IMG/VR virus record: IMGVR_UViG_3300023179_009086
Coordinates: 1 to 64,000 of that record
DNA: 64,000 nt
From: a virus
Reading direction: 5' to 3' (one strand)
This document shows, one piece after another, positions 1,537-17,547 of the stretch. The notes under the pieces are model-generated. The model saw only the letters and a list, made by a program, of their open reading frames with translations, was not told where the DNA came from and ran no database searches. Each line of letters starts with the position of its first letter. Positions within the stretch are counted from its first letter, which is position 1. A program made the position numbers and the translations under genes.

Positions 1537-4500
1537 TTAATTTATTAATATAATTTCGTCATTTTCCATTAACTCTGATGCAATAATGGATATTTCTGAG
1601 CCATCCCTACTTACCTTTAGGCTTTGACCAATATGAATTTCTTTGGATGTGCCATCATCGAAGTCAACAGTAAGATACTCGAATGATTTCATGTCGACAC
1701 CAAGCTTGGCGCCTATATCGTCAAATGATATTGATTCTCCATCACTAGAAATAATCTTTGTATCAGAAGTTACGCAAGCATTTGGCGCAATCGCAAGGAT
1801 GTGACTAAATCTTTTTCCTGTTCCAACGGCATCGGGAGCTTCACCCCTTTCCTTTCCAAGCTCAAGGTCGGCAATATCTAATAAACCCCTAATTTGTTTA
1901 AACATTCTAATATTGGTTGATTTTGCCAAAGCACTTTCAAAAGGAATTCCTTTTTGCTGCAAATAAGCATGAAACCCAAGCGCCCCAATTCCTATAGACC
2001 TCTCTCTCATGGCGGAGAATTTAGCCCTTGATATTGACTCTGGAGCATTTTCAATAAAGTAAGTTAAAACATTGTCAAGCATTTCTGCAACATCTTTTAA
2101 GAAAAGAGGATCATCTTTCCACTGATCATATGTCTCTAGATTTAACGATGAAAGACAGCAAACCGCTGTTCTCTCATCTGATGTGGGAAGAATTATCTCC
2201 GAACAATTGTGTGTGATGACGCCATTACATACCCAGAGATGCTGGTCTGTATGAACTCCCACACAATAAACATCCTGTTTTCCCGCTGGTTCTATTTTTG
2301 TAATTTTTGAAGATTTTTCTGAATTATTTTCAAATTTATCGTTTGCAACATAAGGTGAGCCGACTATATGATTAATCTTGTAAATACTTGAATATTCGGA
2401 GATACAAACTGAGTTTGTATCGTCATCAATGTTTGATGTTACTCCAAGATTCGAAAGAATAAGTTGAAGGCTTGCAGCATCTTCTTTGAATGAGCAAATA
2501 CTTATTTTTGATACAAAGATATGCTTGTCAAAATCTATGGATGTAGATGATGACAAAATGATCTTGCTTATGTAAGAAATATGTGTTTGTTTATCTGAAT
2601 TCCAAAGCCAATTTGGAATCATCATGTTTTCTATTGAATGATTTTCTGAAAAGTACTCTCTTACTTTTTCTATATTATTCTGCGTTCCAAATACGCCCTC
2701 ATGTGACTGAATAAATATATCATCTCCGATGTTCAATTCTGAAAGTGCAATCGCTTCAACTTTTCCGTTCTTCTTTGCCAGAATCTTATGATACCCAGTG
2801 ACAGTATGAGTCATGCCATTGTCGAGAGTAACTTTGAATGTCTCTGCATTTCTCTCAATTAGATTCATCTTCGTGGACTTTACAGGGCCATCATTTGATG
2901 CAAGAATAAGATCCTCTCCAAGATCATAAAGCTCTTTTGCAGTCAACATTCCAAAATTAGTTGGGACTCTCTGATCTCCTGAGACGCAGAGATTACTCTG
3001 TCGAACTTGTAGGCCTTTACTTTTTAGAAAATCTGGGAGAAAGCGATTTGATGTATCGATAAAGTGAATGTATGGCTCTCCTGTCTGCATTCTCAGCTCT
3101 AAAATCTTTTGCCACAATTCTTTCGCAGACACAACCTCCTTCACCTGACCGGTGTGTGGCTCTTTTAGTTCCCATGAGTCATCAACATTAGGATCTATCA
3201 TAGATCTCTCAATAATCTTCATAAAACTATCAGATATATTTATTCCATGGTGGAGATTTAGACATCTCATGTTTTGATCGCCTGTTGGCTTTCTCATTTC
3301 AAGAAATATAGGAACGTCAGGATGAGAAATATCCAGATAAGCGGCGTAAGATCCTCTCCGTGTATTTCCGCAAACAATTGGCGTTTCTCCCGCTCTAACT
3401 ACAATCTTTCCGGTCCGGACCACACAACAATGGACCATTCCTTCATACTGAATATGTTCTTTTCTTAACTTTTCAAGAAGGAAGTAATTCTTACTCCCAA
3501 CAAAAACTGTATACATATCTTGCCTTGGCTTGTCTCTTTTTCTATGAAAGATTCTGCTCTGTCGGCCAGCAATTACAGAAAGCGCCTGAACAATCGATGC
3601 GTTTTCTTTTATAGTGCTAAAGTAAATAAAACTATGCTGCCTGTTTCTTGTTGCATCCCATTCCGCAATTTCTTCAAGCATGGCGGAGGCATCCTCTTGG
3701 GTAATTCTTGACAAATCAATCCAAGAGAGACTCTTTAGCCCATCAAAATTCATACCTTTAGCATAAACGCTAACAGTGCCGTCTAAATTGTTAGCCTGCC
3801 ATGTTTCCAAATCTAGATTTGATAGAATTTCTGTTATTCTTGAAATCTTTCTTTCTTTTTTTAGATGGAATTCACATACGCCGTCCGCCCTAATATGAGC
3901 ATCTGCCTGTATTGCAATTTTCAGGCGAGTAAGTGCATCTAGTTTGGATTGTGATCTAGACTTCTTTGCTGCGTTCCAGAACCTAACTTCATTATGAAAC
4001 TTCAATTCTGATGCACGAACCTTCTCTAGTTTTTTTGACCAGCCAGATTTAACTTTTCTCTCAACAACCATAGAGTGATCTTCCGTTACTGAAATTTCTA
4101 TTCCTCTAGTTTTGTTATAGAATTTGATTATATTCCCATTATATTTTTCAGATACTATTTCTAGTGGTTTTTCAAAACAGATTCCTCCATCATCATCGAT
4201 CACTGCAACATCGTCATTTTTAGTCAGTAGCTCCATAGGCTTCCAGCCTGAAGATGTCAGTATTTCTGTTCCGGGAACATAGCAATTCCCTTGTTTGAAA
4301 GCCAGGGATGAAGCATCATAAATCTTTAGGTGTGGCATAACACCAGTAGATTTGTCACCAGCCGACCTAATCCCAAAACCCAAACCAACGCCGCCGCCAA
4401 GCATTGATAACCAGTTTGTCTCAGAAAGAGTGTCTACCAGACCCTTGGCTGTATCAGGAATCCATGATAGAAAACAACTAATTGGTAAACCATACTTAGT

Positions 4501-4734
4501 TCTACCAAAGGACAGAATTGGGGTGGAATAGCTCAACCAATGCTTGCTAGCATAATCATAGAGTCTCTGGGCATGATCTTGATTTGAGGAGAATTGCTTT
4601 GAAACAAAAGCAAACCTCTGCTGTGGTGAGGTTTCTTCATCTCTCATGTATGATTCTTTTAACCTTTTTAGGCCTAACTCATCAAATAAAGAGTCTCTAC
4701 TATAATCTACATTAATTCCAAGATAACTAGACAT
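1537..4734 (-). CDS. nrdA: Ribonucleotide reductase class Ia alpha subunit, N-terminal fragment with two cis inteins and an N-intein
   Basis: STPILS, LPISCFL, GGGVG, QGN|TRRG, TGEPYI, SNL|CSEI, AVCCLSSLNL, ERSIGIGALG, AIAPNA. No ATP cone. The exteins sum to about 597 aa with the downstream fragment. Confidence 0.93.
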   Translation of the reverse strand: MSSYLGINVDYSRDSLFDELGLKRLKESYMRDEETSPQQRFAFVSKQFSSNQDHAQRLYDYASKHWLSYSTPILSFGRTKYGLPISCFLSWIPDTAKGLVDTLSETNWLSMLGGGVGLGFGIRSAGDKSTGVMPHLKIYDASSLAFKQGNCYVPGTEILTSSGWKPMELLTKNDDVAVIDDDGGICFEKPLEIVSEKYNGNIIKFYNKTRGIEISVTEDHSMVVERKVKSGWSKKLEKVRASELKFHNEVRFWNAAKKSRSQSKLDALTRLKIAIQADAHIRADGVCEFHLKKERKISRITEILSNLDLETWQANNLDGTVSVYAKGMNFDGLKSLSWIDLSRITQEDASAMLEEIAEWDATRNRQHSFIYFSTIKENASIVQALSVIAGRQSRIFHRKRDKPRQDMYTVFVGSKNYFLLEKLRKEHIQYEGMVHCCVVRTGKIVVRAGETPIVCGNTRRGSYAAYLDISHPDVPIFLEMRKPTGDQNMRCLNLHHGINISDSFMKIIERSMIDPNVDDSWELKEPHTGQVKEVVSAKELWQKILELRMQTGEPYIHFIDTSNRFLPDFLKSKGLQVRQSNLCVSGDQRVPTNFGMLTAKELYDLGEDLILASNDGPVKSTKMNLIERNAETFKVTLDNGMTHTVTGYHKILAKKNGKVEAIALSELNIGDDIFIQSHEGVFGTQNNIEKVREYFSENHSIENMMIPNWLWNSDKQTHISYISKIILSSSTSIDFDKHIFVSKISICSFKEDAASLQLILSNLGVTSNIDDDTNSVCISEYSSIYKINHIVGSPYVANDKFENNSEKSSKITKIEPAGKQDVYCVGVHTDQHLWVCNGVITHNCSEIILPTSDERTAVCCLSSLNLETYDQWKDDPLFLKDVAEMLDNVLTYFIENAPESISRAKFSAMRERSIGIGALGFHAYLQQKGIPFESALAKSTNIRMFKQIRGLLDIADLELGKERGEAPDAVGTGKRFSHILAIAPNACVTSDTKIISSDGESISFDDIGAKLGVDMKSFEYLTVDFDDGTSKEIHIGQSLKVSRDGSEISIIASELMENDEIILIN
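1540..1776 (-). mobile_element. N-terminal half of a split intein (79 aa)
   Basis: Starts CVTSDTKIISSDG (block A) right after APNA and ends at the TAA. No TxxH and no terminal HN. Confidence 0.85.
2206..2988 (-). mobile_element. Cis intein (261 aa) inserted at the thiyl-radical Cys of NrdA; endonuclease region probably degenerate
   Basis: SNL|CVSGDQRV ... TVTGYHKI ... DVYCV ... NGVITHN|CSEI. The central region has only remnant LAGLIDADG-like segments (IPNWLWNS, LQLILSNLGV). Confidence 0.9.
3364..4284 (-). mobile_element. Cis intein (307 aa) with a LAGLIDADG-like endonuclease domain
   Basis: QGN|CYVPGTEILT ... VTEDHSM ... IAIQADAH ... EIAEWDAT ... PIVCGN|TRRG. Penultimate residue is Gly, +1 is Thr. 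Confidence 0.9.
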
Positions 4735-4751: not shown

Positions 4752-5291
4752 TTATGATTCTAATTCTGGATTATACTGTTCCGATATTTGTCCATCTTTC
4801 CAAATTCTAACTAAATTTGTTTCTTCAGAAAGTGTAAATACTGATATAACATCTTTTCTCATTGAAAATGAGGCTGCGCTTATATGTCTAGTTCCACATC
4901 CATCTGGAACATCCAAAATTGGATTATCTACTGTTAGATAAATCTTACTACCTAATATTTGTCCATCTCTATTGATAACTATAGATCCATCATTGTTCTC
5001 TTTTATAAGAGAATGAAATTCTTTTTCAAAGGAACTAATGGAAATATTTAAATATTTTTGAATTGGATTTAATCCAATTTGCCTCATTCCTGGCACAATA
5101 TGATCTCGGTAAAAATCAAAATTACCAAAAACTATTAGGCAGCCAATATTGGCTGCTGTTTTATGAGAGGAATTTGAAATCTCAATTAAAGAATTATAGA
5201 TCTTCTTTTCTACTTTTTGAAACTCTCTTGCAGAGTTAAATTGAAAAGAAAAATCTACAGATGATACCTTCTGTAAATCTTCTGTAGTCAT
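4752..5291 (-). CDS. Stand-alone diadenylate cyclase (DAC/DisA_N) domain protein
   Basis: IGCLIVFG, NDGSIVINRDGQI (DGA-like motif), GCGTRHISAA (RHR-like motif), LSEET..VRIWKDG. No TM segment or regulatory domain. Confidence 0.8.
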   Translation of the reverse strand: MTTEDLQKVSSVDFSFQFNSAREFQKVEKKIYNSLIEISNSSHKTAANIGCLIVFGNFDFYRDHIVPGMRQIGLNPIQKYLNISISSFEKEFHSLIKENNDGSIVINRDGQILGSKIYLTVDNPILDVPDGCGTRHISAASFSMRKDVISVFTLSEETNLVRIWKDGQISEQYNPELES

Positions 5292-5299
5292 TTGTTATC

Positions 5300-6682
5300 C
5301 TATCCGCTAAATCCATCCTCATCATAAGTAAGATGAACTTCTTCATTTTTAGCATTTATAGTCTGAATATTAATTGGATTTTTCCATATTTCATAAATAT
5401 ATTCACATACTTTTTCTATATGTTTGATATCCAAAGTTCCAATATGGGTACTTTCATGTTTTAATTGTAAAAATCCATCTTCCACACCGACGATGCTAAC
5501 CAGGGGTGCTCGATAGTCATAGAGATTTTTAACCAGGGACTCTGCAACATCATCTACATCAGTAGATACGACCTCTACTATTTCATCAAAATTATTTTTA
5601 TAATGTTTATAAGTAAACAACTCAAGTTCTTGTACTAATTCTTTAGTTAGATATCCTTTTACAAAAGAAATATCATCCTCTTCCTCTACTACTTCAAAAA
5701 CTTTTTGAAGTCCATTTATATTAGATTCTCCTTTTTGATATTTTTCATCCCATCTTTTTTTAATATCATTAAAAATAGAAAAACCCAAAAAATATGGATT
5801 AATATTTAATTTATTAGATCCAGGTTGAACTACTCTTTCATGTACTTTACAAAATTCTAAATGTTCTGATTGAGAAGTTAAATCAGTTTCATACATTAAA
5901 TCTGCATGGCAAAAACTTGCAAATCCTTCATTCATAATTTTTGTCATATATTGTGGATAAAAATAATAAGATTCTTCTCTAATTATTTCTAAAACATCTT
6001 TTTTCCATGATTCTAAATCTTTAGAATAATTTACCAAAAACCAAATAAGATCATATTCAGGATGTGGTGGAAAAGTGTCATTTAAAACATGCATTTTTTT
6101 AGAAGTAGCTGGAAGTCCGTGCATATCCGCAAATTCTCCATTGGAGATTTCTTTTATAAGAGTTCTTTTTTTTGGATATGGTTTTCTATGAATTCCTTTG
6201 TGCCAATCAATATGTTTATCTATTGCAAATCCTATATCCATTACTCTTTCTACTTCTTTTAAGCCATAATGAGCAATATACTCCTCTATTCTCTGAGCTC
6301 TTTCTGCAGCATGATAAACCATTTTATTATCTGTTTGTTTAAACAAAAAATTATTTTTAAAAAAATGAACATGTCCAAAAACATGGGCAGCTACCATTAG
6401 ATTAACAATATCTGAATTTGTATCTAATAAAAAAGCATAAGAAGGATCATTATTTAAAACTACTTCATAAATTTTTGAGTGTCCCATTTCTCCTTGCATT
6501 TTTTGATAATCATAAGATTGCCCATAAGACCAATGTCTAGCTCTAGTAGGTAATCCATAACTAACTACTTCTAACATTACTTCATTAGGAACTATTTCAA
6601 AATTAACTGGATAAAAGTTTAGTCCAAAATTTTTAGCCAATTTTTCCATTTCAACAATTTTTTCTGTTAATGTTTTAGACAT
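5300..6682 (-). CDS. spoVR: SpoVR/YcgB family protein
   Basis: GLPTRARHWSYG, IYEVVLNNDP, AHVFGHVHFFKNN, YFYPQYMTKIMNEGFASFCH, INPYFLGF. Start moved to the ATG at 6682 (GGA SD). Confidence 0.92.
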   Translation of the reverse strand: MSKTLTEKIVEMEKLAKNFGLNFYPVNFEIVPNEVMLEVVSYGLPTRARHWSYGQSYDYQKMQGEMGHSKIYEVVLNNDPSYAFLLDTNSDIVNLMVAAHVFGHVHFFKNNFLFKQTDNKMVYHAAERAQRIEEYIAHYGLKEVERVMDIGFAIDKHIDWHKGIHRKPYPKKRTLIKEISNGEFADMHGLPATSKKMHVLNDTFPPHPEYDLIWFLVNYSKDLESWKKDVLEIIREESYYFYPQYMTKIMNEGFASFCHADLMYETDLTSQSEHLEFCKVHERVVQPGSNKLNINPYFLGFSIFNDIKKRWDEKYQKGESNINGLQKVFEVVEEEDDISFVKGYLTKELVQELELFTYKHYKNNFDEIVEVVSTDVDDVAESLVKNLYDYRAPLVSIVGVEDGFLQLKHESTHIGTLDIKHIEKVCEYIYEIWKNPINIQTINAKNEEVHLTYDEDGFSG

Positions 6683-7871
6683 TTTTATCCTTTTTTGCAA
6701 TACCATCTATATTAAAAAACATTTTTAATGCATCAAAGACTTCATCTTTAGAATTTACTTTCATAGTTACAAATCTTGTTCTTTTAATTTTTTTCTTTAA
6801 AATATCATGAAGAGTATCATAACCAGATTTATTCCATTGAATTTCTCTATCATTAGGGGCTATCTCTCCGTACCCTATGGCAGTACATAGTGGCAATAAT
6901 TTTTCAATATATTTAATACAAAGATTATTGTCTTCTCCCCAATTATCACCATCAGAGAATTCAAAAACATAATTATTCCAATATTCAACAGGGTGATGAT
7001 TTTGTATATGTTCGTACGCTAATTTAAAAGCAGTACTACAATTTGTACCACCAGAGCTTGAGATTTTAAAAAATTCTTTTTCCTCTACAATAAAAGCTTT
7101 AGAATCGTGAGCTATAAAAACAAAATCTATTTTTTTATATCTTCTTTTTAAAAATTGAACCATCCAAAAATAAAAACTTTTGGCAATATAAGTTTTTTCG
7201 TTATTCATGGATCCACTTCGATCCATCATAATATATACTGCAGCATTAGAATGATATTCTCTAACAATATCATAATTTTTATATCTTAAATCATCTTGAT
7301 TAAAGTTTGCAATTTTGGCTTCACCTTTTGCAGCATTTCTTTTTAGATTTTGAAGAATAGTTTTTTTCAAATCTAAGTTAGGCATAATGCCTTTTTTATC
7401 AATTGATGCAAATTCTTCATTTTCAATTTCAATAACAGAAGTTTGTTTTGGCTCCATCCATGGAAGGTTGAGTTCTTCCAACATAATGTCTACCAATTCA
7501 TCTATTGTAACGTCTGCATCAAAAGTTCTTTCACCTTCTTTATTTCCAGCTCCATCTCCGCTGGATTCTTCTGGCTGGCCACTTTTTATTTTAAATTTAT
7601 CACCCTTACCAGCTTTAACACCCTGACCGGTAGCATCTTGAGAATTCAATTTGCCATATTTGATTTTATATTGATCAAGAAATCTGATGGGAACTTTAAT
7701 TTTTTTATCCCCATCGGATGTAATGATATTATATTCGGTAATAAGATCTTTGCCATTTTTACGAATGGCATCTTTTACCAACTCTTTATGTCTATCTGAG
7801 TCTCTCTTACCTCTTCTTTTTAGCTTCCAGATATCAGAGAGATTCTCAGAGGATTTGGAAGTAGAGCTCAT
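6675..7871 (-). CDS. yeaH: YeaH/YhbH (DUF444) vWA-domain protein
   Basis: DSDRHKELVKDAI, EELNLP, DDLRYK, MIDAS DRSGSM, SSGGT, FSDGDNW. Lies between prkA and spoVR. Confidence 0.9.
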   Translation of the reverse strand: MSSTSKSSENLSDIWKLKRRGKRDSDRHKELVKDAIRKNGKDLITEYNIITSDGDKKIKVPIRFLDQYKIKYGKLNSQDATGQGVKAGKGDKFKIKSGQPEESSGDGAGNKEGERTFDADVTIDELVDIMLEELNLPWMEPKQTSVIEIENEEFASIDKKGIMPNLDLKKTILQNLKRNAAKGEAKIANFNQDDLRYKNYDIVREYHSNAAVYIMMDRSGSMNNEKTYIAKSFYFWMVQFLKRRYKKIDFVFIAHDSKAFIVEEKEFFKISSSGGTNCSTAFKLAYEHIQNHHPVEYWNNYVFEFSDGDNWGEDNNLCIKYIEKLLPLCTAIGYGEIAPNDREIQWNKSGYDTLHDILKKKIKRTRFVTMKVNSKDEVFDALKMFFNIDGIAKKDKNV

Positions 7872-9781
7872 TAGTTTCTAGCCATTAATGAACTAACATA
7901 TCTTAGTAATTTGTTAGCAGACTCTGCTGTATATCCATGTTTTTCACATAGAGTATTAATAACTACATTAATTCTTTTAAGCTCTTCCTCATCTGGATTT
8001 CTAGTGCTTACAGTCAATCTGATGACATCTTGTCTTTCATCAAAGAGTTGCTTCTCTAAAGCTTCCTTTAGTTTTGGATGATCTTTGTAATTATAAGAAC
8101 CATTACTACTTTTGGCGCTTCTAAGCATTTTTCTATAGATTTCTTGTCTAAATGACTTTTTACCGCTCTCAGTAATTCCAACTTTTTCTTCAATGGATCT
8201 CATAAGTCTTTCATTTGGATCTTTTAAATTACCCCACTCATCTTCAATTTTAGTTCCATCTAGGAAAGCTCCAACATGATCCATATAATTATTGAGAAGA
8301 TTCTGAAGCTCTTCTTCAAAATTAACAAAGAAAGCTTTTTGAACTTCGCTCTTAGCAAGTTTTGAGTATTCTTCAATAACAGATGTCATAATATTTTCAA
8401 GTCTTTCAATTTCTTTAGAATCAAGTTTTGGATTAGTTTTAAATCCATCTCTAATAGATCTAATTACATCAATAGGAGTAATGCAAGTTGCACCTTCTTG
8501 TGCTAAAGTAGAAGAAATTCTATTAACAATATATCTAGGTGAAATTCCAGACATGCCTTCTGTATCAAATTCTTTCTTTAGAAGAGCAACATCTCCATGG
8601 GAAAAACCTTCGACTTCGTCACCATTATAGAGCCTCATTTTATTAATTGGTGTTGCCGCAGAGTTTTTGGACTCTTTAAGTCTTGATAGAATTGAGAACA
8701 TTGCTGCACAATAAAGTGTATATGGAGCAATATGTACTGATTTAAGATCTGAATTTTTAACTAATTTTTCATAAATCTTAACTTCATCGCTTACATTGAG
8801 ATTATAAGGAACTTTTACAACAATAATTCTATCATGTAAAGCTTCCATTTCTTCTTTTGCTAGAAATCTTTTATATTCGGTCTCATTGCTATGAGCAAGC
8901 AAAAATTCATCAGCATAGATGAGTGGAAATCTTCCAGTTTTAATATTCTTTTCTTGAGCAAGAGTTAATAAAACATAAAGAAATTTTTGATCTACCTTTA
9001 GCATTTCTACGAACTCCATCATGCCTCTGTTGGCTATATTGAGTTCTCCATCAAATCTAAAAGCTCTAGGGTCTGACTCCGATCCATACTCTCCAATCTT
9101 ACTCAAATCCATAGATCCTACTAGCTCGGAAATATCTTGACTCTTTTTATCTGAAGGAACAAAAGTTCCTATTCCAACTCTAGATTGCTCAGAGAAAATA
9201 ACTCTTTTAACTGGTAGATCTAAAAAGTTTCCATTGTACTGTTCTTTTAACACTAAATCCATAAGTGGACTTAACTGTCCTTCTATTTTAATTCCATAAT
9301 TTTCTAGCAAAGATTTTCTCAGATCATTTGGAATAGCCCAAAGTGGATCCTCATGCATAGGAGACTCGGAAAGAGCATAAATGGCACCCTCTGGAGTTTT
9401 TGAAAACTCCTCCATGCCTCTTTTTAACATAATAGCCAATTGTGACTTACCAGAAGAAGTTGGTCCGTATAGTAAAAGTATTCTTCTTGAAACCTCAGAG
9501 CCAGCCGCAGCAGCCCTTAAATAAGACATAATTTGCTCAATGGAATCTTCTGCTCCAAAGATTTCATTAGCAAAAAAATTATATTTAGTAATTTGTCCAG
9601 ATTCGCCTCTCTCCACTCCGGCATGCTCAATCATCTTTAAAACTCTAGAATGAGAGCTTATATTTAAGGCTGGATTCTCTATTACCATTTCCAAATAGTC
9701 TTTTAAGGTACCAGACCAAGAAAGTTCATTAGTTTTCTTGATATGCTTTGTCATTTCTTGGATAAGTTTGGCTGACTTCAT
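7871..9781 (-). CDS. prkA: PrkA/YeaG family AAA+ ATPase (annotated serine kinase family)
   Basis: RILLLYGPTSSGKS (Walker A), SPMHEDPL, SQDISELVG, SESDPRAF.FDGELNIANRGMMEFVEMLK, EALHDRI, GMSGISPR. TAATG coupling to yeaH. Confidence 0.93.
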   Translation of the reverse strand: MKSAKLIQEMTKHIKKTNELSWSGTLKDYLEMVIENPALNISSHSRVLKMIEHAGVERGESGQITKYNFFANEIFGAEDSIEQIMSYLRAAAAGSEVSRRILLLYGPTSSGKSQLAIMLKRGMEEFSKTPEGAIYALSESPMHEDPLWAIPNDLRKSLLENYGIKIEGQLSPLMDLVLKEQYNGNFLDLPVKRVIFSEQSRVGIGTFVPSDKKSQDISELVGSMDLSKIGEYGSESDPRAFRFDGELNIANRGMMEFVEMLKVDQKFLYVLLTLAQEKNIKTGRFPLIYADEFLLAHSNETEYKRFLAKEEMEALHDRIIVVKVPYNLNVSDEVKIYEKLVKNSDLKSVHIAPYTLYCAAMFSILSRLKESKNSAATPINKMRLYNGDEVEGFSHGDVALLKKEFDTEGMSGISPRYIVNRISSTLAQEGATCITPIDVIRSIRDGFKTNPKLDSKEIERLENIMTSVIEEYSKLAKSEVQKAFFVNFEEELQNLLNNYMDHVGAFLDGTKIEDEWGNLKDPNERLMRSIEEKVGITESGKKSFRQEIYRKMLRSAKSSNGSYNYKDHPKLKEALEKQLFDERQDVIRLTVSTRNPDEEELKRINVVINTLCEKHGYTAESANKLLRYVSSLMARN

Positions 9782-9784
9782 TTT

Positions 9785-10069
9785 TTATTCTCCCTCTCCA
9801 TATATATCTCTAATAGTATGTTGGTCACCGTTTTTTATTTTTTCTACTATATTTCTTGCTTCTTCACGCGCCTTTTCGACAATTTCTTGAGAAGATTTAG
9901 AAACTTTACTTGAAATTGTGTTATATATTCTATTAAAATTAGAGTTTCCACATTTTTTACAAATAATATTTTTAAATTTATTTTTATTTATAGACTGAAA
10001 ATCAATTATAGTACAAGAAAGCGTCTGTTCATTTTTGCAATCTATACATTTAATATTATACGTCGGCAT
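9785..10069 (-). CDS. FmdB-type zinc-ribbon protein
   Basis: MPTYNIKCIDC ... CKKCG ... RIYNTISS pattern. Confidence 0.7.
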   Translation of the reverse strand: MPTYNIKCIDCKNEQTLSCTIIDFQSINKNKFKNIICKKCGNSNFNRIYNTISSKVSKSSQEIVEKAREEARNIVEKIKNGDQHTIRDIYGEGE

Positions 10070-10244: not shown

Positions 10245-10550
10245 TTATTTATCGGCAAAAATAGCATTAATTATATGAGGATTATCTTGATTAATTAAAA
10301 ATAAAATAGAAGTTTTTTTATCTTTTTTAATTTTAGAAATTAAATTGAATGGAATTGACATAATTGGAACGGCTCCAATTATAATTGGTGAATCTATCAT
10401 TTTATCTATAGGCAATAGATCTAAATATTTTTCAGACATATTTATATTTAATACTAAATATTTTGAATATTCTTCAGATAAAGAAATTTTTATTTCTATA
10501 ATATCATTTTTATTAATGCCAGATGATTTTATCCCTTTTCTATATTTCAT
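10245..10550 (-). CDS. Hypothetical protein
   Basis: Likely start is the ATG at 10550 (GGAG 6 nt upstream), overlapping the dnaB stop. Confidence 0.6.
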   Translation of the reverse strand: MKYRKGIKSSGINKNDIIEIKISLSEEYSKYLVLNINMSEKYLDLLPIDKMIDSPIIIGAVPIMSIPFNLISKIKKDKKTSILFLINQDNPHIINAIFADK

Positions 10551-11907
10551 TTTCATCTCCACTATCTGCAATCCAATTATCAGGAAGACTTTCAATTCTA
10601 CTTTTATCAAAAGCCTTCTTTAAGAGAATTGCACCCTTAGCGCCATCTCGATTTTTTACAATATGAATTTCCATATCTTCTCGGAGATGTTCATCTTCTC
10701 TATTTCCAATAATTAAAGCAATAGCTGCGTTATCTCCAATCATTTTACTTCTGCCGAAGTCTTCTAGATTTACATCATCTACTTTTTTACCATTAGTTTT
10801 TTTCTGGGCTGCTTTTCTTTGCGCTGCAGTAACTACTGGTAAATTCTTTTTTCTACAGAATTCATGTAATTCCTCAGAAACTTTTCCAACGTCGAGCCAG
10901 TCGGTTCCTACCGCTCCAATAGTGGGCTTCATAAGCTGAAGATAATCAACAAAAACTGCATCTGGTTTAAAGATGCCAAGAATAGTTTCATATTTGGCCT
11001 CTATTTCTCCCATGGTTGTTCCACGGGGCATATCTAGAATGTAAAAAACTTTATCATAAGTTTTTTGAAATTCTAAACATTTAGACCATCTATAATGCTC
11101 ATCTCCAGAAAGGGTAGCCCTCATAATTCCCCTATGTCTAATTCCAGCAAGATTGGCATCTAGTCTTTGTTCCAATTGCTGTTTAGACATTTCCAGAGAA
11201 ATGTAAAGAATATTTTTTCCATCTGGATGGCCAGTAATGCCTTCTGCAGGATCATTGCTACCCCTCCATGCATTAATAGCCATATTCATCATTAAGAGGG
11301 ATTTTCCAGAAGATGAAGCTCCACCGATGACTAACATCTCTGAATTTTTAATTCCCCAAGTATAATCGTCTAATTCTTTATAACCAGAGAGAAAACCTCT
11401 GATTTGTTCTGGATTTTCTAATACATAATCATAGTGTCTTAAACGATCTTCTGTAGAATCAGAAACTCTTCCTTCTGAAAAAGCACTTTGTTTATAAAGT
11501 TTTTCAGTTTGAGCAATGACTTTTTTAATATCATCATTGATATCTTTAATATCACTACCTTCTTCTTCTATTTCTTCTACTTTTTTAACTAACCTATCAG
11601 CAAGATATTTATTATATCTTATTTTAATTTTATCTATTAAAAATCCAATCTCATTAGCTTGAGTTTTTTCACCCTCAATAATAGAAATAACTCTTGTGGG
11701 TTCCCCATCTTGTTCTAGAAGTTCTTTTAGTACATTGTGAGAGGGTGGGATTTTATGTCTTGAATAATAAGTGCAAATTTTTTCTACAGCTGGTTTAAAA
11801 TCTGGTAACAAAACTGCTTTTATTAGATCTGGATCTAAATTTCTAATTACCTCATTATACTCTAGAGGTCCTTTGGACATCCAAGATAAAATTTTAGCAT
11901 CTATCAA
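10540..11907 (-). CDS. dnaB: DnaB-like (SF4) replicative helicase
   Basis: GGASSSGKS, YISLEMS, FVDYLQLM, VVTAAQ, IVKNRDG. Confidence 0.92.
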   Translation of the reverse strand: MIDAKILSWMSKGPLEYNEVIRNLDPDLIKAVLLPDFKPAVEKICTYYSRHKIPPSHNVLKELLEQDGEPTRVISIIEGEKTQANEIGFLIDKIKIRYNKYLADRLVKKVEEIEEEGSDIKDINDDIKKVIAQTEKLYKQSAFSEGRVSDSTEDRLRHYDYVLENPEQIRGFLSGYKELDDYTWGIKNSEMLVIGGASSSGKSLLMMNMAINAWRGSNDPAEGITGHPDGKNILYISLEMSKQQLEQRLDANLAGIRHRGIMRATLSGDEHYRWSKCLEFQKTYDKVFYILDMPRGTTMGEIEAKYETILGIFKPDAVFVDYLQLMKPTIGAVGTDWLDVGKVSEELHEFCRKKNLPVVTAAQRKAAQKKTNGKKVDDVNLEDFGRSKMIGDNAAIALIIGNREDEHLREDMEIHIVKNRDGAKGAILLKKAFDKSRIESLPDNWIADSGDENEI

Positions 11908-12569
11908 GATTTCCTCCTTTGATCCTTGCCTCCCACGTATAAGACCTCTATATGCTGCGACCTAAGCGACTTAAAGGTTCTTCCGAAGTGGCCTGCAAAT
12001 ATTTTATCCACATCATCGGCGTTAGAACACATTATGGTTGGTAGGCCATTTTGAAATCTGCTTCGAAGCAGATGTTCCATTGTAGAACCAAATAACTGCT
12101 CGGATTTTTCAGATGGAAAAATCCATCTTGGATCCAGCTCATCTATGGCCAAAAAATCTGTATCCAAAAGTGATTGTAAATATTCTCCACTATTGTCTTT
12201 AATTACTTTATTAACAATATCTGCCATAGTAGTATAGATTGATTTATAATCACTTACAATTGCTAACTTTAAAAGACAACAAATGCTATAAGTCTTACCG
12301 ACGCCTAAAGATCCAACTAAAATCATAGATCCGCCATGATCGTATATTTTATTGATATCTTTTAATTTTTCTCTAAATAAATCTGCAAAATTTTGATCAC
12401 CAATAAAATCCTTAAAAGAAGAATTCCAATAAATTGTAGGAATACCGGCTACTGCATATCTATCTATTCTAGATGCTTTTTTCTGACAGTTAAAACAAGA
12501 TCCATTTTGACAAGTACATTCATTATATATTTTTTGTTTTTCTCTAGTAATTTTATTATCAGGAATCAT
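11904..12569 (-). CDS. DnaC/DnaI/IstB-like ATPase, probable helicase loader
   Basis: N-terminal CxC...CxxC, AGIP, GSLGVGKT, LAIDELD, RFQNGLPTIMCSN. Overlaps the dnaB start. Confidence 0.82.
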   Translation of the reverse strand: MIPDNKITREKQKIYNECTCQNGSCFNCQKKASRIDRYAVAGIPTIYWNSSFKDFIGDQNFADLFREKLKDINKIYDHGGSMILVGSLGVGKTYSICCLLKLAIVSDYKSIYTTMADIVNKVIKDNSGEYLQSLLDTDFLAIDELDPRWIFPSEKSEQLFGSTMEHLLRSRFQNGLPTIMCSNADDVDKIFAGHFGRTFKSLRSQHIEVLYVGGKDQRRKS

Positions 12570-12966
12570 CTTCTACCTTAAAATTTAAGACATTACTTGA
12601 ATTAGTTTCTTTAAAAGAAATAGAAAGATCATCTTCATTATCATGATGTTTTTTACCCAATAATGATCTTGGTATATTTAAAAATGTTTCAGAATAAGAA
12701 ATTCCATTTTCTGGAAAAAATTCTTCAATATATTCTTCTTTTTCAGGAGGATTTTCTTCAGAAATATGTTTAATATTTTTTTCTTTTATTTTATTAGAAT
12801 TTTCAATTTTAACAAAATTGACTTTATTTTTAAATAATAAATATAATTCTCCATTTTTATTTAAAATAATTTTATCAGAATCCTGACTAGCAACAAGGCC
12901 AGAAATTTCCCATCCGCCGTCTAGAAAGAAAGACGCATATTTACCAACTAAATTTGTGTTTGACAT
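12559..12966 (-). CDS. Sm/Hfq-like fold protein with acidic C-terminal tail
   Basis: FFLDGGWEISGLVASQDSDKIIL...LYLLFKNKVNFV aligns by eye to the Hfq Sm1/Sm2 pattern. Confidence 0.5.
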   Translation of the reverse strand: MSNTNLVGKYASFFLDGGWEISGLVASQDSDKIILNKNGELYLLFKNKVNFVKIENSNKIKEKNIKHISEENPPEKEEYIEEFFPENGISYSETFLNIPRSLLGKKHHDNEDDLSISFKETNSSNVLNFKVEDDS

Positions 12967-15248: not shown

Positions 15249-16607
15249 CTAGCGTTTTCTCCTCATATCAATGAGGGAATTTTGAGAACTTCCTGTAACT
15301 TGAAGTCTATTAAAACCAGAATTTTTTCTTTGAATTTTTTTATGAATCTCACTAGCAACATTAGCTACTGCATCATCTTCAAGTGACATACTCATAGCCT
15401 TTACTCTATCTTTTTCTTTTTGAGAAGAAACTGCAGATTGAGCTTTACTTTCTTCTTTTAAAGTTTCTATTCTAGATTTAGGGAGTCCTAATCCAGCAAA
15501 CCAGCTATAGATTTTAACAGAATCTGTTTCAGATTCAACATCATAAATACCCTGAAATATAAAGGCGCCCTTTGTTTGTTCAGAAATCATATGAAAACAA
15601 TAATTAATATTAATGGCTGGAAGTTTATCTAAAACTTCTTTAGAACCAGTAATAATAACTCCACCCACCCTTGTTTGAGTTAAATCAAAACCTTCAGCTA
15701 GCATGTTAGAATTTAAACTATCAATAACTGATTCAGCTAGGGCGGTCTCATTCATATAATCTTCAACTTCAATGACACCATAAACAGAACAATCTCCTGC
15801 AGAAACAATCTTCCCGAAATCACTTGGATCCAGAGAAGTAAATCTTGATGGTCTAGAAGTTAAATGGTTAAAGACATCAATAGGTTCAACGATAGCTCTA
15901 TTGGAGGCCTCCCAGAATTTAGCCTGGGATAGATTTGCATAAATAGCCTCTATTCTAGCATTATCAACAACAACTAAAGAAGCAATAACATTGGCCGAGG
16001 AAAGTTTGGCTAACTTAGAAAGAGTTTCAAGGGAATTCTTTTTAGACTGAGAATCCTCTGTAGCTTTTGGCAATACATAAATAACTCCAACCGGAGTTCC
16101 AAACTCATATAACATAGGTACCATAGTTTCAACAGAGGAAGATCCAGTTCCTCCGCCACCAGAAACAGCTAGGTAAACCATATTATTGCCTTCAATAATT
16201 TTTCTAGAGAATTCTGTAATCTCATCCAGAGATGAAGCAAAAATCTCTCGACCCAATTCAAGATCTTTTCCGGTTCCGCCAAGAGTTCCGGTTAACAGAA
16301 GTTTGTTATGGGGAAGCACATCAATATATTCAAGATCTTGAGAAGAAGTGTTTATAACTCCAGCATCATAACCTAGCTTGTGAAAAACTTCGGCAATTCT
16401 AGAACCAGCCTGGCCGACACCTATTACGGCCATTTCAATAGCCACACTTCTTTTAGCAACGACTTTTGGCACTTCTTCCTCCACTTTCTTTTCTAATCTT
16501 CCTCTAAGTTTTTGTAAAGTAGCAGCATCTAAAGCAGATTTATTTAATGCAGATGTTAACTTATCATTTTCTTCTTTTATTTCTTCTTTTGTTTTATTTT
16601 GTTCCAT
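15249..16607 (-). CDS. Tubulin/FtsZ superfamily GTPase (PhuZ/TubZ/CetZ-like)
   Basis: IGVGQAGSRIA, INTS, GGTGKD, signature GGGGTGS, VVVDNA, LDPSDF. Start moved to 16607 (GAGGA SD). Confidence 0.88.
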   Translation of the reverse strand: MEQNKTKEEIKEENDKLTSALNKSALDAATLQKLRGRLEKKVEEEVPKVVAKRSVAIEMAVIGVGQAGSRIAEVFHKLGYDAGVINTSSQDLEYIDVLPHNKLLLTGTLGGTGKDLELGREIFASSLDEITEFSRKIIEGNNMVYLAVSGGGGTGSSSVETMVPMLYEFGTPVGVIYVLPKATEDSQSKKNSLETLSKLAKLSSANVIASLVVVDNARIEAIYANLSQAKFWEASNRAIVEPIDVFNHLTSRPSRFTSLDPSDFGKIVSAGDCSVYGVIEVEDYMNETALAESVIDSLNSNMLAEGFDLTQTRVGGVIITGSKEVLDKLPAININYCFHMISEQTKGAFIFQGIYDVESETDSVKIYSWFAGLGLPKSRIETLKEESKAQSAVSSQKEKDRVKAMSMSLEDDAVANVASEIHKKIQRKNSGFNRLQVTGSSQNSLIDMRRKR

Positions 16608-17547
16608 AAAAATCCTCACAATATTTATTGATTTGTTCTGCAATTGCAGATGGTTCTATAACTGCAAACGGAATTAAAGAATCAGACTGATTATACCCAG
16701 AAACTCTACATAAGTAGTTTGAATGCTCTTTCATCGGCTCAACATTAGAGGTAATAATATCACATCCAATTTTTTTAGCTTCAAAAAAACACATACCAAG
16801 ACCCTCCCTAGTTGAGGGGGCAATAATACAATCTGCTTCAGCATATGCATCATGAATTTCTTGCCTAGAAATTTTTTGACCAATAAAAGTTATTCTTTTA
16901 TCTTTTACTTCCATATTTTTGAGTCCAGAAATAATTAATCTAACTTTTTGAAAAGAAACTAATGAAAAAGAGTTAATAACAGCAGGTGTATTTTTTTGAT
17001 TAATTTCAGAATTAGATCCAGGATGATAAAAAGTTATTATATCTTTTTTTTCTTTTTTTATCTTGGAAAAATTAGGACAAAAATCCCAAGTTATTTTTTT
17101 TGCATTTGAAAAATTTTTAAATAGAAAAAATGTTTGATCTGTTAAACAATATACTTCAGAAAATTTTTTATATTTATTTTGATAAAGATCAGTTTTCATT
17201 GACCATTCGGGCATAGGAATGTCTATTACCTGCACTCCTATCTTAGAAATAGCCTCTACCCAATGAGAATCTTTTATAAAAGTTTCAAACGAAAATATTT
17301 TTTTAATATTATATTTTTTAATATAAGAAATAAGTTGTAAACTATAAGAAATATCACTATTAAATAATAAAAAATTATTCATTTCACTTTTAAAGTGTCC
17401 GGTCCATTTATTATTAACATAAATAAAACTTTTCTTAGGAATCATAAAAACTTGATTTCCTAATTGTTCTTGATAAATTTTAAAAGATTCAGCAAGATAA
17501 TATAAACCAGAAATAAATGGATATGTAATTACACCAATATTTTCCAT
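16594..17547 (-). CDS. GT-B (GT4-like) glycosyltransferase
   Basis: ADCIIAPSTREGLGMCFFEA (E-x7-E motif). Confidence 0.8.
   Translation of the reverse strand: MENIGVITYPFISGLYYLAESFKIYQEQLGNQVFMIPKKSFIYVNNKWTGHFKSEMNNFLLFNSDISYSLQLISYIKKYNIKKIFSFETFIKDSHWVEAISKIGVQVIDIPMPEWSMKTDLYQNKYKKFSEVYCLTDQTFFLFKNFSNAKKITWDFCPNFSKIKKEKKDIITFYHPGSNSEINQKNTPAVINSFSLVSFQKVRLIISGLKNMEVKDKRITFIGQKISRQEIHDAYAEADCIIAPSTREGLGMCFFEAKKIGCDIITSNVEPMKEHSNYLCRVSGYNQSDSLIPFAVIEPSAIAEQINKYCEDFYGTK

Follow-up and report, generated by a model that had tools for sequence, protein, structure and literature searches.

Does a diadenylate cyclase (DAC) carried by a virus work as one unit with the three proteins encoded directly upstream of it, or do two separate functions simply share an inherited gene order? 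The question is raised by positions 4,752 to 9,781 of the window, by which we mean the whole 64,000-nucleotide stretch of DNA analyzed here (positions 1 to 64,000 of the IMG/VR virus record IMGVR_UViG_3300023179_009086), where prkA, yeaH and spoVR, hereafter the trio, are followed by a gene for a DAC domain. A first-pass annotation of this DNA had proposed that the four genes form a viral module controlling the dormancy or starvation state of the host, or a remodelling machine built from an AAA+ and a von Willebrand factor A (vWA) protein whose client or output is the cyclase. Comparative sequence analysis identifies a virus-borne clade of minimal DACs that is fixed behind a virus-borne trio. 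We give about an even chance to the reading that the trio and the DAC act in parallel in host takeover, rather than as one physical machine.

The gene run and its viral origin

All four genes are intact and lie on the minus strand, as judged from the listing of open reading frames (ORFs) and from Pfam:

7871..9781, minus strand: prkA / yeaG (spdA)-family AAA+ protein, 636 amino acids (aa); AAA_PrkA (PF08298) 1.1e-121 over residues 25-374 and PrkA_C (PF06798) 8.8e-72 over residues 379-628
6675..7871, minus strand: yeaH / yhbH (DUF444, vWA-like), 398 aa; DUF444 (PF04285) 5.2e-86
5300..6706, minus strand: spoVR / ycgB, 468 aa; Pfam SpoVR (PF04293) 1.3e-109 over profile positions 5-401 of 407
4752..5291, minus strand: minimal stand-alone DAC-domain gene, 179 aa; PF02457 2.5e-12 (46.9 bits; gathering score 27)

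The genes are tightly packed. prkA and yeaH share 1 nucleotide (nt), yeaH and spoVR overlap by 32 nt, and 8 nt lie between spoVR and the DAC gene, whose ATG is closely preceded by an AGGA. A gap of 17 nt separates the DAC gene from nrdA. This is the arrangement that the first-pass annotation had described, in one run with dnaB.

The source is a 76.6-kb IMG/VR virus contig, estimated to be 23% complete (CheckV). A gene for a baseplate wedge protein (phrog_6, 7e-41) and structural ORFs of very large size are among its contents. The identical gene string is present, once per genome, in four relatives whose sizes are 332, 395, 317 and 335 kb and whose completeness is 94-100%; the 335-kb genome has direct terminal repeats. 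Near-identical DNA has turned up in at least 3 other studies, in metagenomes of lakes and fresh water. Because the identical string recurs in near-complete relatives, one of them with terminal repeats, the record is a fragment of a jumbo phage from an aquatic/freshwater lineage and not a chimera. The earlier description of the cluster as phage-borne is thus confirmed, and the concern raised with it, that the contig might be a chimera with host DNA, does not survive the finding of the same string in near-complete phage genomes. An assembly error that placed host DNA in a viral contig, or a cluster at the flank of a prophage, would fit the fact that the trio and the DAC belong to typically cellular gene families, the somewhat higher GC content at 1-12 kb (0.30-0.375, compared with 0.19-0.32 over the remaining window) and the 'provirus' label that one relative carries in IMG/VR. 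However, four genomes that are 94-100% complete keep the gene order, phage replication and ribonucleotide reductase (RNR) genes flank the cluster on both sides on a single strand, and no relative of the DAC was found among 185,579 prokaryote species genomes (one genome per species). The near-complete relatives, together with the near-identical sequence in independent metagenomes, rule out a chimera with host DNA for practical purposes, and the probability of any such artefact is negligible. No tRNAs were found in the window.

The proteins of the trio are complete members of their families. The Walker A motif of PrkA is intact (GPTSSGKS, residues 106-113), the translation of yeaH contains the DRSGS, GGT and SDGD motifs of the type found at metal ion-dependent adhesion sites (MIDAS), and the SpoVR match spans the full length of the profile. 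Nevertheless, all three score below the NCBIfam equivalog cut-offs though they lie within their Pfam families: PrkA reaches 317 bits against PRK15455 (equivalog cut-off 576), and YeaH matches TIGR02877 spore_yhbH with 1.9e-112, likewise below cut-off. By these scores, PrkA is a divergent family member and not of ortholog grade. SpoVR is 53-68% identical to the spoVR products of related phages. What these proteins do in cells has begun to emerge. In Bacillus subtilis, PrkA is an ATP-dependent, Lon-like protease required for sporulation, whose function needs Walker A/ATP binding (PMC9512850). In Escherichia coli, starvation triggers a turnover of cytoplasmic protein that is largely non-specific and supplies amino acids and ATP, and for which YeaG, now called SpdA, is needed (PMC13684143); yeaG, yeaH and ycgB act in one pathway, with conserved cofitness (bioRxiv 10.1101/072470).

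In several relatives the trio genes contain in-frame inteins, most of them with LAGLIDADG endonucleases (L044:6346-8955, L049:6303-8957, L054:6413-8986 and L004:3240-6257). SpoVR has two insertion sites, which follow approximately residue 264-272 and residue 109, and the single site in PrkA follows approximately residue 298. Intein sites usually mark functionally critical motifs, and the SpoVR sites could be a pointer to the active regions of this protein.

The neighbouring genes are as follows:

9785..10069, minus strand: FmdB-type zinc-ribbon ORF, 94 aa; Pfam Zn_ribbon_8 9.7e-05, below cut-off, with CxxC...CxxC and a C-terminal D(I/L)YGE
10540..11907, minus strand: dnaB-like replicative helicase; DnaB_C 6.6e-32
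1537..4734, minus strand: nrdA, intein-bearing RNR large subunit (N part); Ribonuc_red_lgC 6.5e-55 with Intein_splicing and Hint

The zinc-ribbon ORF ends 3 nt ahead of prkA. Its homologues precede prkA in all members of the DAC-bearing clade, including a divergent lineage (L057:2910-3170), and the string may thus have a fifth member in it. dnaB, an IstB-like ATPase and a helicase lie upstream on the same strand, and the run is co-directional from the helicase via dnaB to nrdA. dnaB is an upstream neighbour within the same collinear block, and nrdA is a downstream neighbour outside the proposed module. A consensus scan found no more promoter-like sites in the run than in shuffles, the best one lying at 15243-15215, upstream of the helicase, and a scan of the run detected no intergenic terminator between its genes. 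Since neither internal promoters nor terminators rise above chance, the four genes look like part of one long operon and not like a separate unit. In a freshwater metatranscriptome library (run X8), two short contigs are 100% identical to the window, at 4902-5094 in the DAC gene and at 7390-7627 in yeaH, which is only a hint of expression and possibly DNA carry-over. Two further ORFs of this region gave weak matches. A 135-aa ORF in the replication block (12559-12966, minus strand) resembles Hfq (Pfam E 0.005, below cut-off) and has homologues conserved in relatives, and a 464-aa ORF (15249-16643, minus strand) resembles the phage tubulin PhuZ (phrog_4733, 1.5e-4).

A minimal cyclase domain known from phages

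The product of the fourth gene is a bare DAC domain preceded by an N-terminal extension of about 45 residues. Within this extension (residues 13-45), outside the Pfam domain, lie a family-specific (V/I)DF(S/T)xQ motif and a long helix. An AlphaFold2 model built on a 56-sequence alignment has a predicted local distance difference test (pLDDT) of 89.9; it was used in place of a model from 7 sequences, which was too poor (pLDDT 62). The 35 matches listed by a Foldseek search of the PDB (ranks 1-47) are all DacM, DacA, CdaA, CdaM or DisA, with probability 1.0 and template modelling (TM) scores of 0.5-0.69, and a search of the ESM Atlas agrees in returning DAC relatives. The DAC fold and the conservation of the catalytic residues are established. 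In the 56 homologues, whose identity goes down to 25%, residues G50, G102, G110, R135, H136, S155 and G167 are invariant, and D101, A103, Y118, L119, E156 and E157 are conserved in at least 90%. These positions correspond to DGA, R-H, Y-L and S-E-E and align to the ATP and metal contacts of CdaA (VSEE, YL). The window protein itself reads DGS, GTRHISAAS and TLSEE. It thus has DGS where DGA stands in the six closest aligned relatives and in more than 90% of the 56 homologues. In place of the canonical RHR motif it has GTRHI; family members differ in the third residue of this motif (I, R, K, L, M, T, V, H), and the RHI variant also occurs in DacZ-type cellular proteins. The published loss of function is an RHR-to-AAA change, in which all three residues are replaced (PMC3328451), and the minimal DACs called PanS are active with DGF and GGR motifs and can make 3'3'-cUA, a cyclic dinucleotide of UMP and AMP, in place of cyclic di-AMP (c-di-AMP) (bioRxiv 10.64898/2026.08.10.743927). 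Because the fold and catalytic positions are conserved, the third residue of the RHR motif also varies in DacZ types, and PanS proteins with deviant motifs are active, the phage protein is likely an active cyclic-dinucleotide synthase. The serine in place of alanine in the DGS of the window protein adds a minor doubt about activity.

The protein belongs to the DAC superfamily by score and by predicted fold and, judging from profile comparisons, is not a DisA, a DacZ or a CdaA; as far as could be tested by comparison with published descriptions, it is not a PanS either. Its best NCBIfam match is NF041371 (haloarchaeal DacZ, 8.4e-12), with 45 bits against a cut-off of 430. This match covers the catalytic half (profile positions 117-268 of 270), and there is no N-terminal DacZ_N or DacZ_P domain. 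The CdaA and DisA models of NCBIfam score below the DacZ model, the DisA model NF010009 reaching 18 bits where its cut-off is 201. A tree built from 149 DAC domains unites the minimal DACs in one clade, with a Shimodaira-Hasegawa-like approximate likelihood-ratio test (SH-aLRT) value of 97, which stands apart from the multi-domain cellular DACs and contains three subclades.

A tblastn search of 50,697 GenBank phage records returned no match to the DAC, and a divergent member of its family gave two weak GenBank phage matches only, both to short faecal fragments. A high-GC subgroup had no match in a scan of viral contigs. In metagenomes, one search returned 415 clustered homologues, some of which lie on contigs of 200-420 kb and some of which come from Tara samples; the top 120 are all 175-207 aa long. 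A profile search of 1.8 billion representatives yielded 374 matches. The DAC clade is so far known only from phage and phage-like contigs. Text searches of the literature found no description of a phage-encoded DAC, and a phage 'DisA_N' lead in PMC11273794 proved to be a false text match.

The situation is different for the trio. Phage-borne trio genes have already been reported (PMC8504454), and the trio is annotated in the Thermus phages phiYS40 and TMA (as 'serine kinase' and 'SpoVR'), in the Ralstonia jumbo phage RsoM2USA and in several huge uncultured phages. The trio in phages is thus already known and the cyclase is the new part. The first-pass remark that the combination had not been characterized in a virus holds for trio plus DAC, of which the literature searched contains no description, and does not extend to the trio alone.

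Whether these phages also encode proteins that read or erase a cyclic-dinucleotide signal was addressed in their genomes. The c-di-AMP receptor family PF06153 is absent from the five records examined. In three complete relatives, ORFs of 276-296 aa gave sub-threshold matches to DHH phosphoesterases:

G008:C1:107499-107804, DHH-like match, sub-threshold
G009:C1:31847-32128, DHH-like match, sub-threshold
G007:C1:340906-341199, DHH-like match, sub-threshold

These ORFs could be nanoRNase-like or c-di-AMP-phosphodiesterase-like. Since PF06153 is absent and the DHH matches are sub-threshold and far from the DAC gene, no phage-encoded c-di-AMP reader or eraser is established.

Joint machine or parallel functions

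The DAC-bearing viral loci for which upstream sequence is available (n=15) all have spoVR directly upstream of the DAC gene (15/15), with gaps ranging from a 1-nt overlap to 77 nt. The order is kept even in the divergent lineage L057 (IMGVR_UViG_3300009537_002640), a 206-kb contig with 42% GC and with identities of 57% for PrkA and 42% for the DAC; there, a gene of the YpsA/SLOG family (Pfam 1.2e-08) at 8469-8972 lies between spoVR and the DAC gene. CheckV puts this contig at 25% complete; should that be right, the genome would be very large. The spoVR-DAC adjacency survives the inteins in spoVR and prkA and an insertion of about 3.9 kb between prkA and yeaH in the complete 335-kb relative with terminal repeats (G009:C1:215949-219843). 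The gene after the DAC varies, being a sigma-70-family factor, a class I or II RNR or others. Clade-wide adjacency is thus established, and the synteny that the first-pass annotation had suggested searching for is found in every related phage examined. In the PrkA tree, the DAC-linked PrkAs form a single clade (SH-aLRT 99), with phiYS40 and LR756511 as nearest outgroups. The adjacency thus reflects one gain with no independent recurrence. Moreover, the block that runs from the helicase through dnaB, the zinc-ribbon gene, prkA, yeaH and spoVR to the DAC gene is wholly collinear in relatives. One acquisition in a collinear block means that synteny cannot separate a functional unit from an inherited order.

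Outside the clade the parts come apart. None of 11 phage records that carry PrkA or the trio (five from IMG/VR, including a 92%-complete genome of 342 kb, along with phiYS40, RsoM2USA and four huge phages of 595-642 kb) contains a DAC anywhere. Conversely, a divergent minimal DAC on an 85-kb phage-like contig (L063) has no trio within 10 kb. The four-gene module of the first-pass annotation therefore stands as a conserved adjacency within one clade and does not stand as a co-occurrence beyond shared descent. On comparative grounds, the locus is best described as a conserved, lineage-specific string with separable parts rather than as a demonstrated functional unit.

Our best explanation, held at even odds with everything else together, is as follows. 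In these aquatic jumbo phages, the zinc-ribbon protein, PrkA, YeaH, SpoVR and the minimal DAC would be co-transcribed within an operon for replication and nucleotide metabolism. The trio would be a viral copy of the cellular YeaG(SpdA)/PrkA-YeaH-YcgB system, comprising an AAA+ ATPase/protease, its vWA partner and SpoVR, and we infer that the phage uses it to turn host protein into amino acids and ATP. The setting would be a long, resource-hungry infection of a nutrient-poor host, presumably among slow-growing freshwater bacteria, in which the RNR might do for nucleotides what the trio does for amino acids and energy. The DAC, as a sensor-less catalytic domain of putative DacZ-like ancestry, would probably, once expressed, be constitutively active in making c-di-AMP or a related cyclic dinucleotide. 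Uptake of potassium and osmolytes, homeostasis of the cell wall and processes related to dormancy are under the control of c-di-AMP, and an unregulated signal could override host control of potassium, osmolytes, the cell wall or dormancy. Both functions would have been joined once, in the ancestor of the clade, and be expressed together. The enzyme activity of the DAC, its product, the purpose of the genes and their parallel rather than coupled action are what we infer in this proposal.

Several observations weigh against this explanation. The unbroken adjacency of spoVR and the DAC gene, despite inteins, insertions and a variable downstream gene, would also fit a true functional pair, and the case of a DAC without the trio is a single contig, in which ±10 kb around the gene were covered. 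The PrkA tree was built without cellular PrkA sequences and does not settle the origin of the viral trio. The DAC of the window has DGS, not DGA, and RHI, not RHR, and replacement of the third RHR residue alone is not covered by the RHR-to-AAA result (PMC3328451). The RNA-library contigs that match the DAC gene and yeaH may be carry-over DNA.

The chief reading of the first-pass annotation, and the second in our ranking, is a true four- or five-component machine, in which the DAC is regulated by, or signals to, a PrkA-YeaH-SpoVR complex; for example, c-di-AMP could act allosterically on the AAA+ protein or on SpoVR, or the sensor-less DAC could be activated by the trio. The spoVR-DAC junction is unbroken in 15/15 loci and in the divergent lineage, while inteins and the 3.9-kb insertion interrupt the run elsewhere and the downstream gene varies. 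The 8-nt spacing with its AGGA is tight enough for translational coupling, a DAC without a sensor domain makes regulation in trans plausible, and the conserved N-terminal motif and helix could be a docking element. Nevertheless, we consider such a machine unlikely, given a single evolutionary gain without independent recurrence, a surrounding block that is equally collinear throughout, a SLOG gene that can separate spoVR from the DAC gene, a DAC family member without an adjacent trio, and the trio without a DAC in 11 other phage records and, as is generally known, in cellular operons. A complex prediction for SpoVR and the DAC, both given as alignments, returned a score of 0.00 and a mark of 0.32 and counts neither way. 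Somewhat less likely still is a phage second-messenger circuit, in which the signal made by the DAC would switch on, or be gated by, the phage's own PrkA-YeaH-SpoVR turnover machine, so that bulk degradation of host protein is timed to the phage replication programme. If true, it would be the first c-di-AMP signalling system to be found encoded by a virus, and would give biochemical access to what YeaH and SpoVR do.

Two further proposals detach the cyclase from the trio. On a par with the circuit in probability, the DAC could be a counter-defence device whose product silences guards of the Panoptoo/Panoptes type or mis-sets effectors that sense cyclic dinucleotides, or the protein could be mainly a nucleotide binder. 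PanS minimal DACs hold a membrane effector in check through the 3'3'-cUA or c-di-AMP that they make, phage sponges trigger the PanS system, and a TIR-SAVED effector can sense c-di-AMP made by DacZ; the phage DAC is likewise minimal and sensor-less, and its family is separable from the trio in L063. Against this, the DAC has no PADLOC match and no adjoining S2TM-beta partner, its DGA/S and GTRH motifs are nearer to housekeeping or DacZ-type DACs than to PanS (DGF, GGR), and no sponge or nuclease gene turned up, none having been searched for. A pairing of the DAC with a following sigma-70-family factor as a signalling/transcription switch, with the trio a mere upstream neighbour, is suggested by genes of 179-216 aa with Sigma70_r2 and r4 that directly follow or overlap the DAC stop codon in seven loci (L041, L043, L047, L048, L049, L051 and L057), for example:

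L041:9538-10113, sigma-70-family gene after the DAC gene, Sigma70_r2 + r4
L047:9531-10070, sigma-70-family gene after the DAC gene, Sigma70_r2 + r4
L049:9468-10058, sigma-70-family gene after the DAC gene, Sigma70_r2 + r4
L051:9476-10078, sigma-70-family gene after the DAC gene, Sigma70_r2 + r4
L057:9535-10185, sigma-70-family gene after the DAC gene, Sigma70_r2 + r4

However, such a gene is absent from all 76.6 kb of the record studied here, in which nrdA follows after 17 nt, and about half of the related lineages (L042, L044, L053/54, L055 and L056) have no sigma match in their loci; the DAC is seemingly retained in lineages without this sigma gene. We regard this pairing as improbable, well behind the other functional proposals.

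To our knowledge, c-di-AMP synthases have so far been treated as cellular enzymes, and a conserved, abundant clade of phage DACs would add viruses to the makers of c-di-AMP. The phage protein would also offer a naturally minimal, sensor-less enzyme to study. The link of YeaG/PrkA, YeaH and YcgB to global proteolysis in starvation is very recent; the phage versions, with their compact operon, inteins at conserved sites and an adjoining nucleotide-signal enzyme, provide an independent angle on what YeaH and SpoVR do biochemically. The locus bears, too, on the way in which giant phages supply themselves during long infections in waters poor in nutrients.

Comparison with known systems

The automatic JGI name for the DAC gene is DisA, and the first-pass annotation had drawn an analogy with the DNA-integrity and sporulation checkpoint of Bacillus. 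The catalytic DAC fold is indeed common to both, and two DisA entries, 3c1y and 4yxm, rank high in the structural search. However, the phage protein lacks the linker and the helix-hairpin-helix (HhH) DNA-binding domains of DisA (179 aa compared with about 360), its nearest cellular relatives are DacZ-type, and its score against the DisA model lies far below the cut-off. The DisA identity is thus rejected and the DNA-integrity checkpoint role is not transferable. Instead, profile and ESM Atlas searches place DacZ/CdaZ proteins of archaea, Planctomycetota and Verrucomicrobiota as the nearest multi-domain relatives. These share the variable third residue of the RHx motif, including RHI, with the phage DAC, which differs in having no DacZ_N, DacZ_P, PK_C or PTS_EIIA sensor domain.

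PanS of the Panoptoo system is, like the phage DAC, a stand-alone DAC that measures about 150-180 aa, lacks a sensor and has variant motifs in its active site, and it is constitutively active (bioRxiv 10.64898/2026.08.10.743927). PanS is cellular, is encoded in a two-gene operon with the S2TM-beta effector PanE and has DGF and GGR motifs. In contrast, by comparison with that description, the phage protein has DGA/S and GTRH motifs, has spoVR and nrdA as neighbours and matches no defence model.

Among phages, phiYS40 and TMA, RsoM2USA and the huge phages of the LR7565xx series likewise have PrkA, DUF444 and SpoVR homologues clustered in large genomes. PrkA identity to these phages is only 28-38%, the DAC is absent from the whole genome, and in phiYS40 the gene order of the trio differs, with an extra gene of 616 aa interposed.

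The cellular prkA(yeaG/spdA)-yhbH(yeaH)-spoVR(ycgB) cluster is a close parallel to the phage trio. It comprises the same three Pfam families in the same order, and the phage proteins match them over their full length with Walker A and MIDAS intact. In cells, the cluster forms one pathway, as judged from cofitness, and drives starvation-induced proteolysis or sporulation. Unlike it, the phage trio has sub-equivalog scores, would not be expected to be under the control of RpoS, NtrC or sigma-E, and is set in a replication operon, with a zinc-ribbon gene before it and a DAC gene after it.

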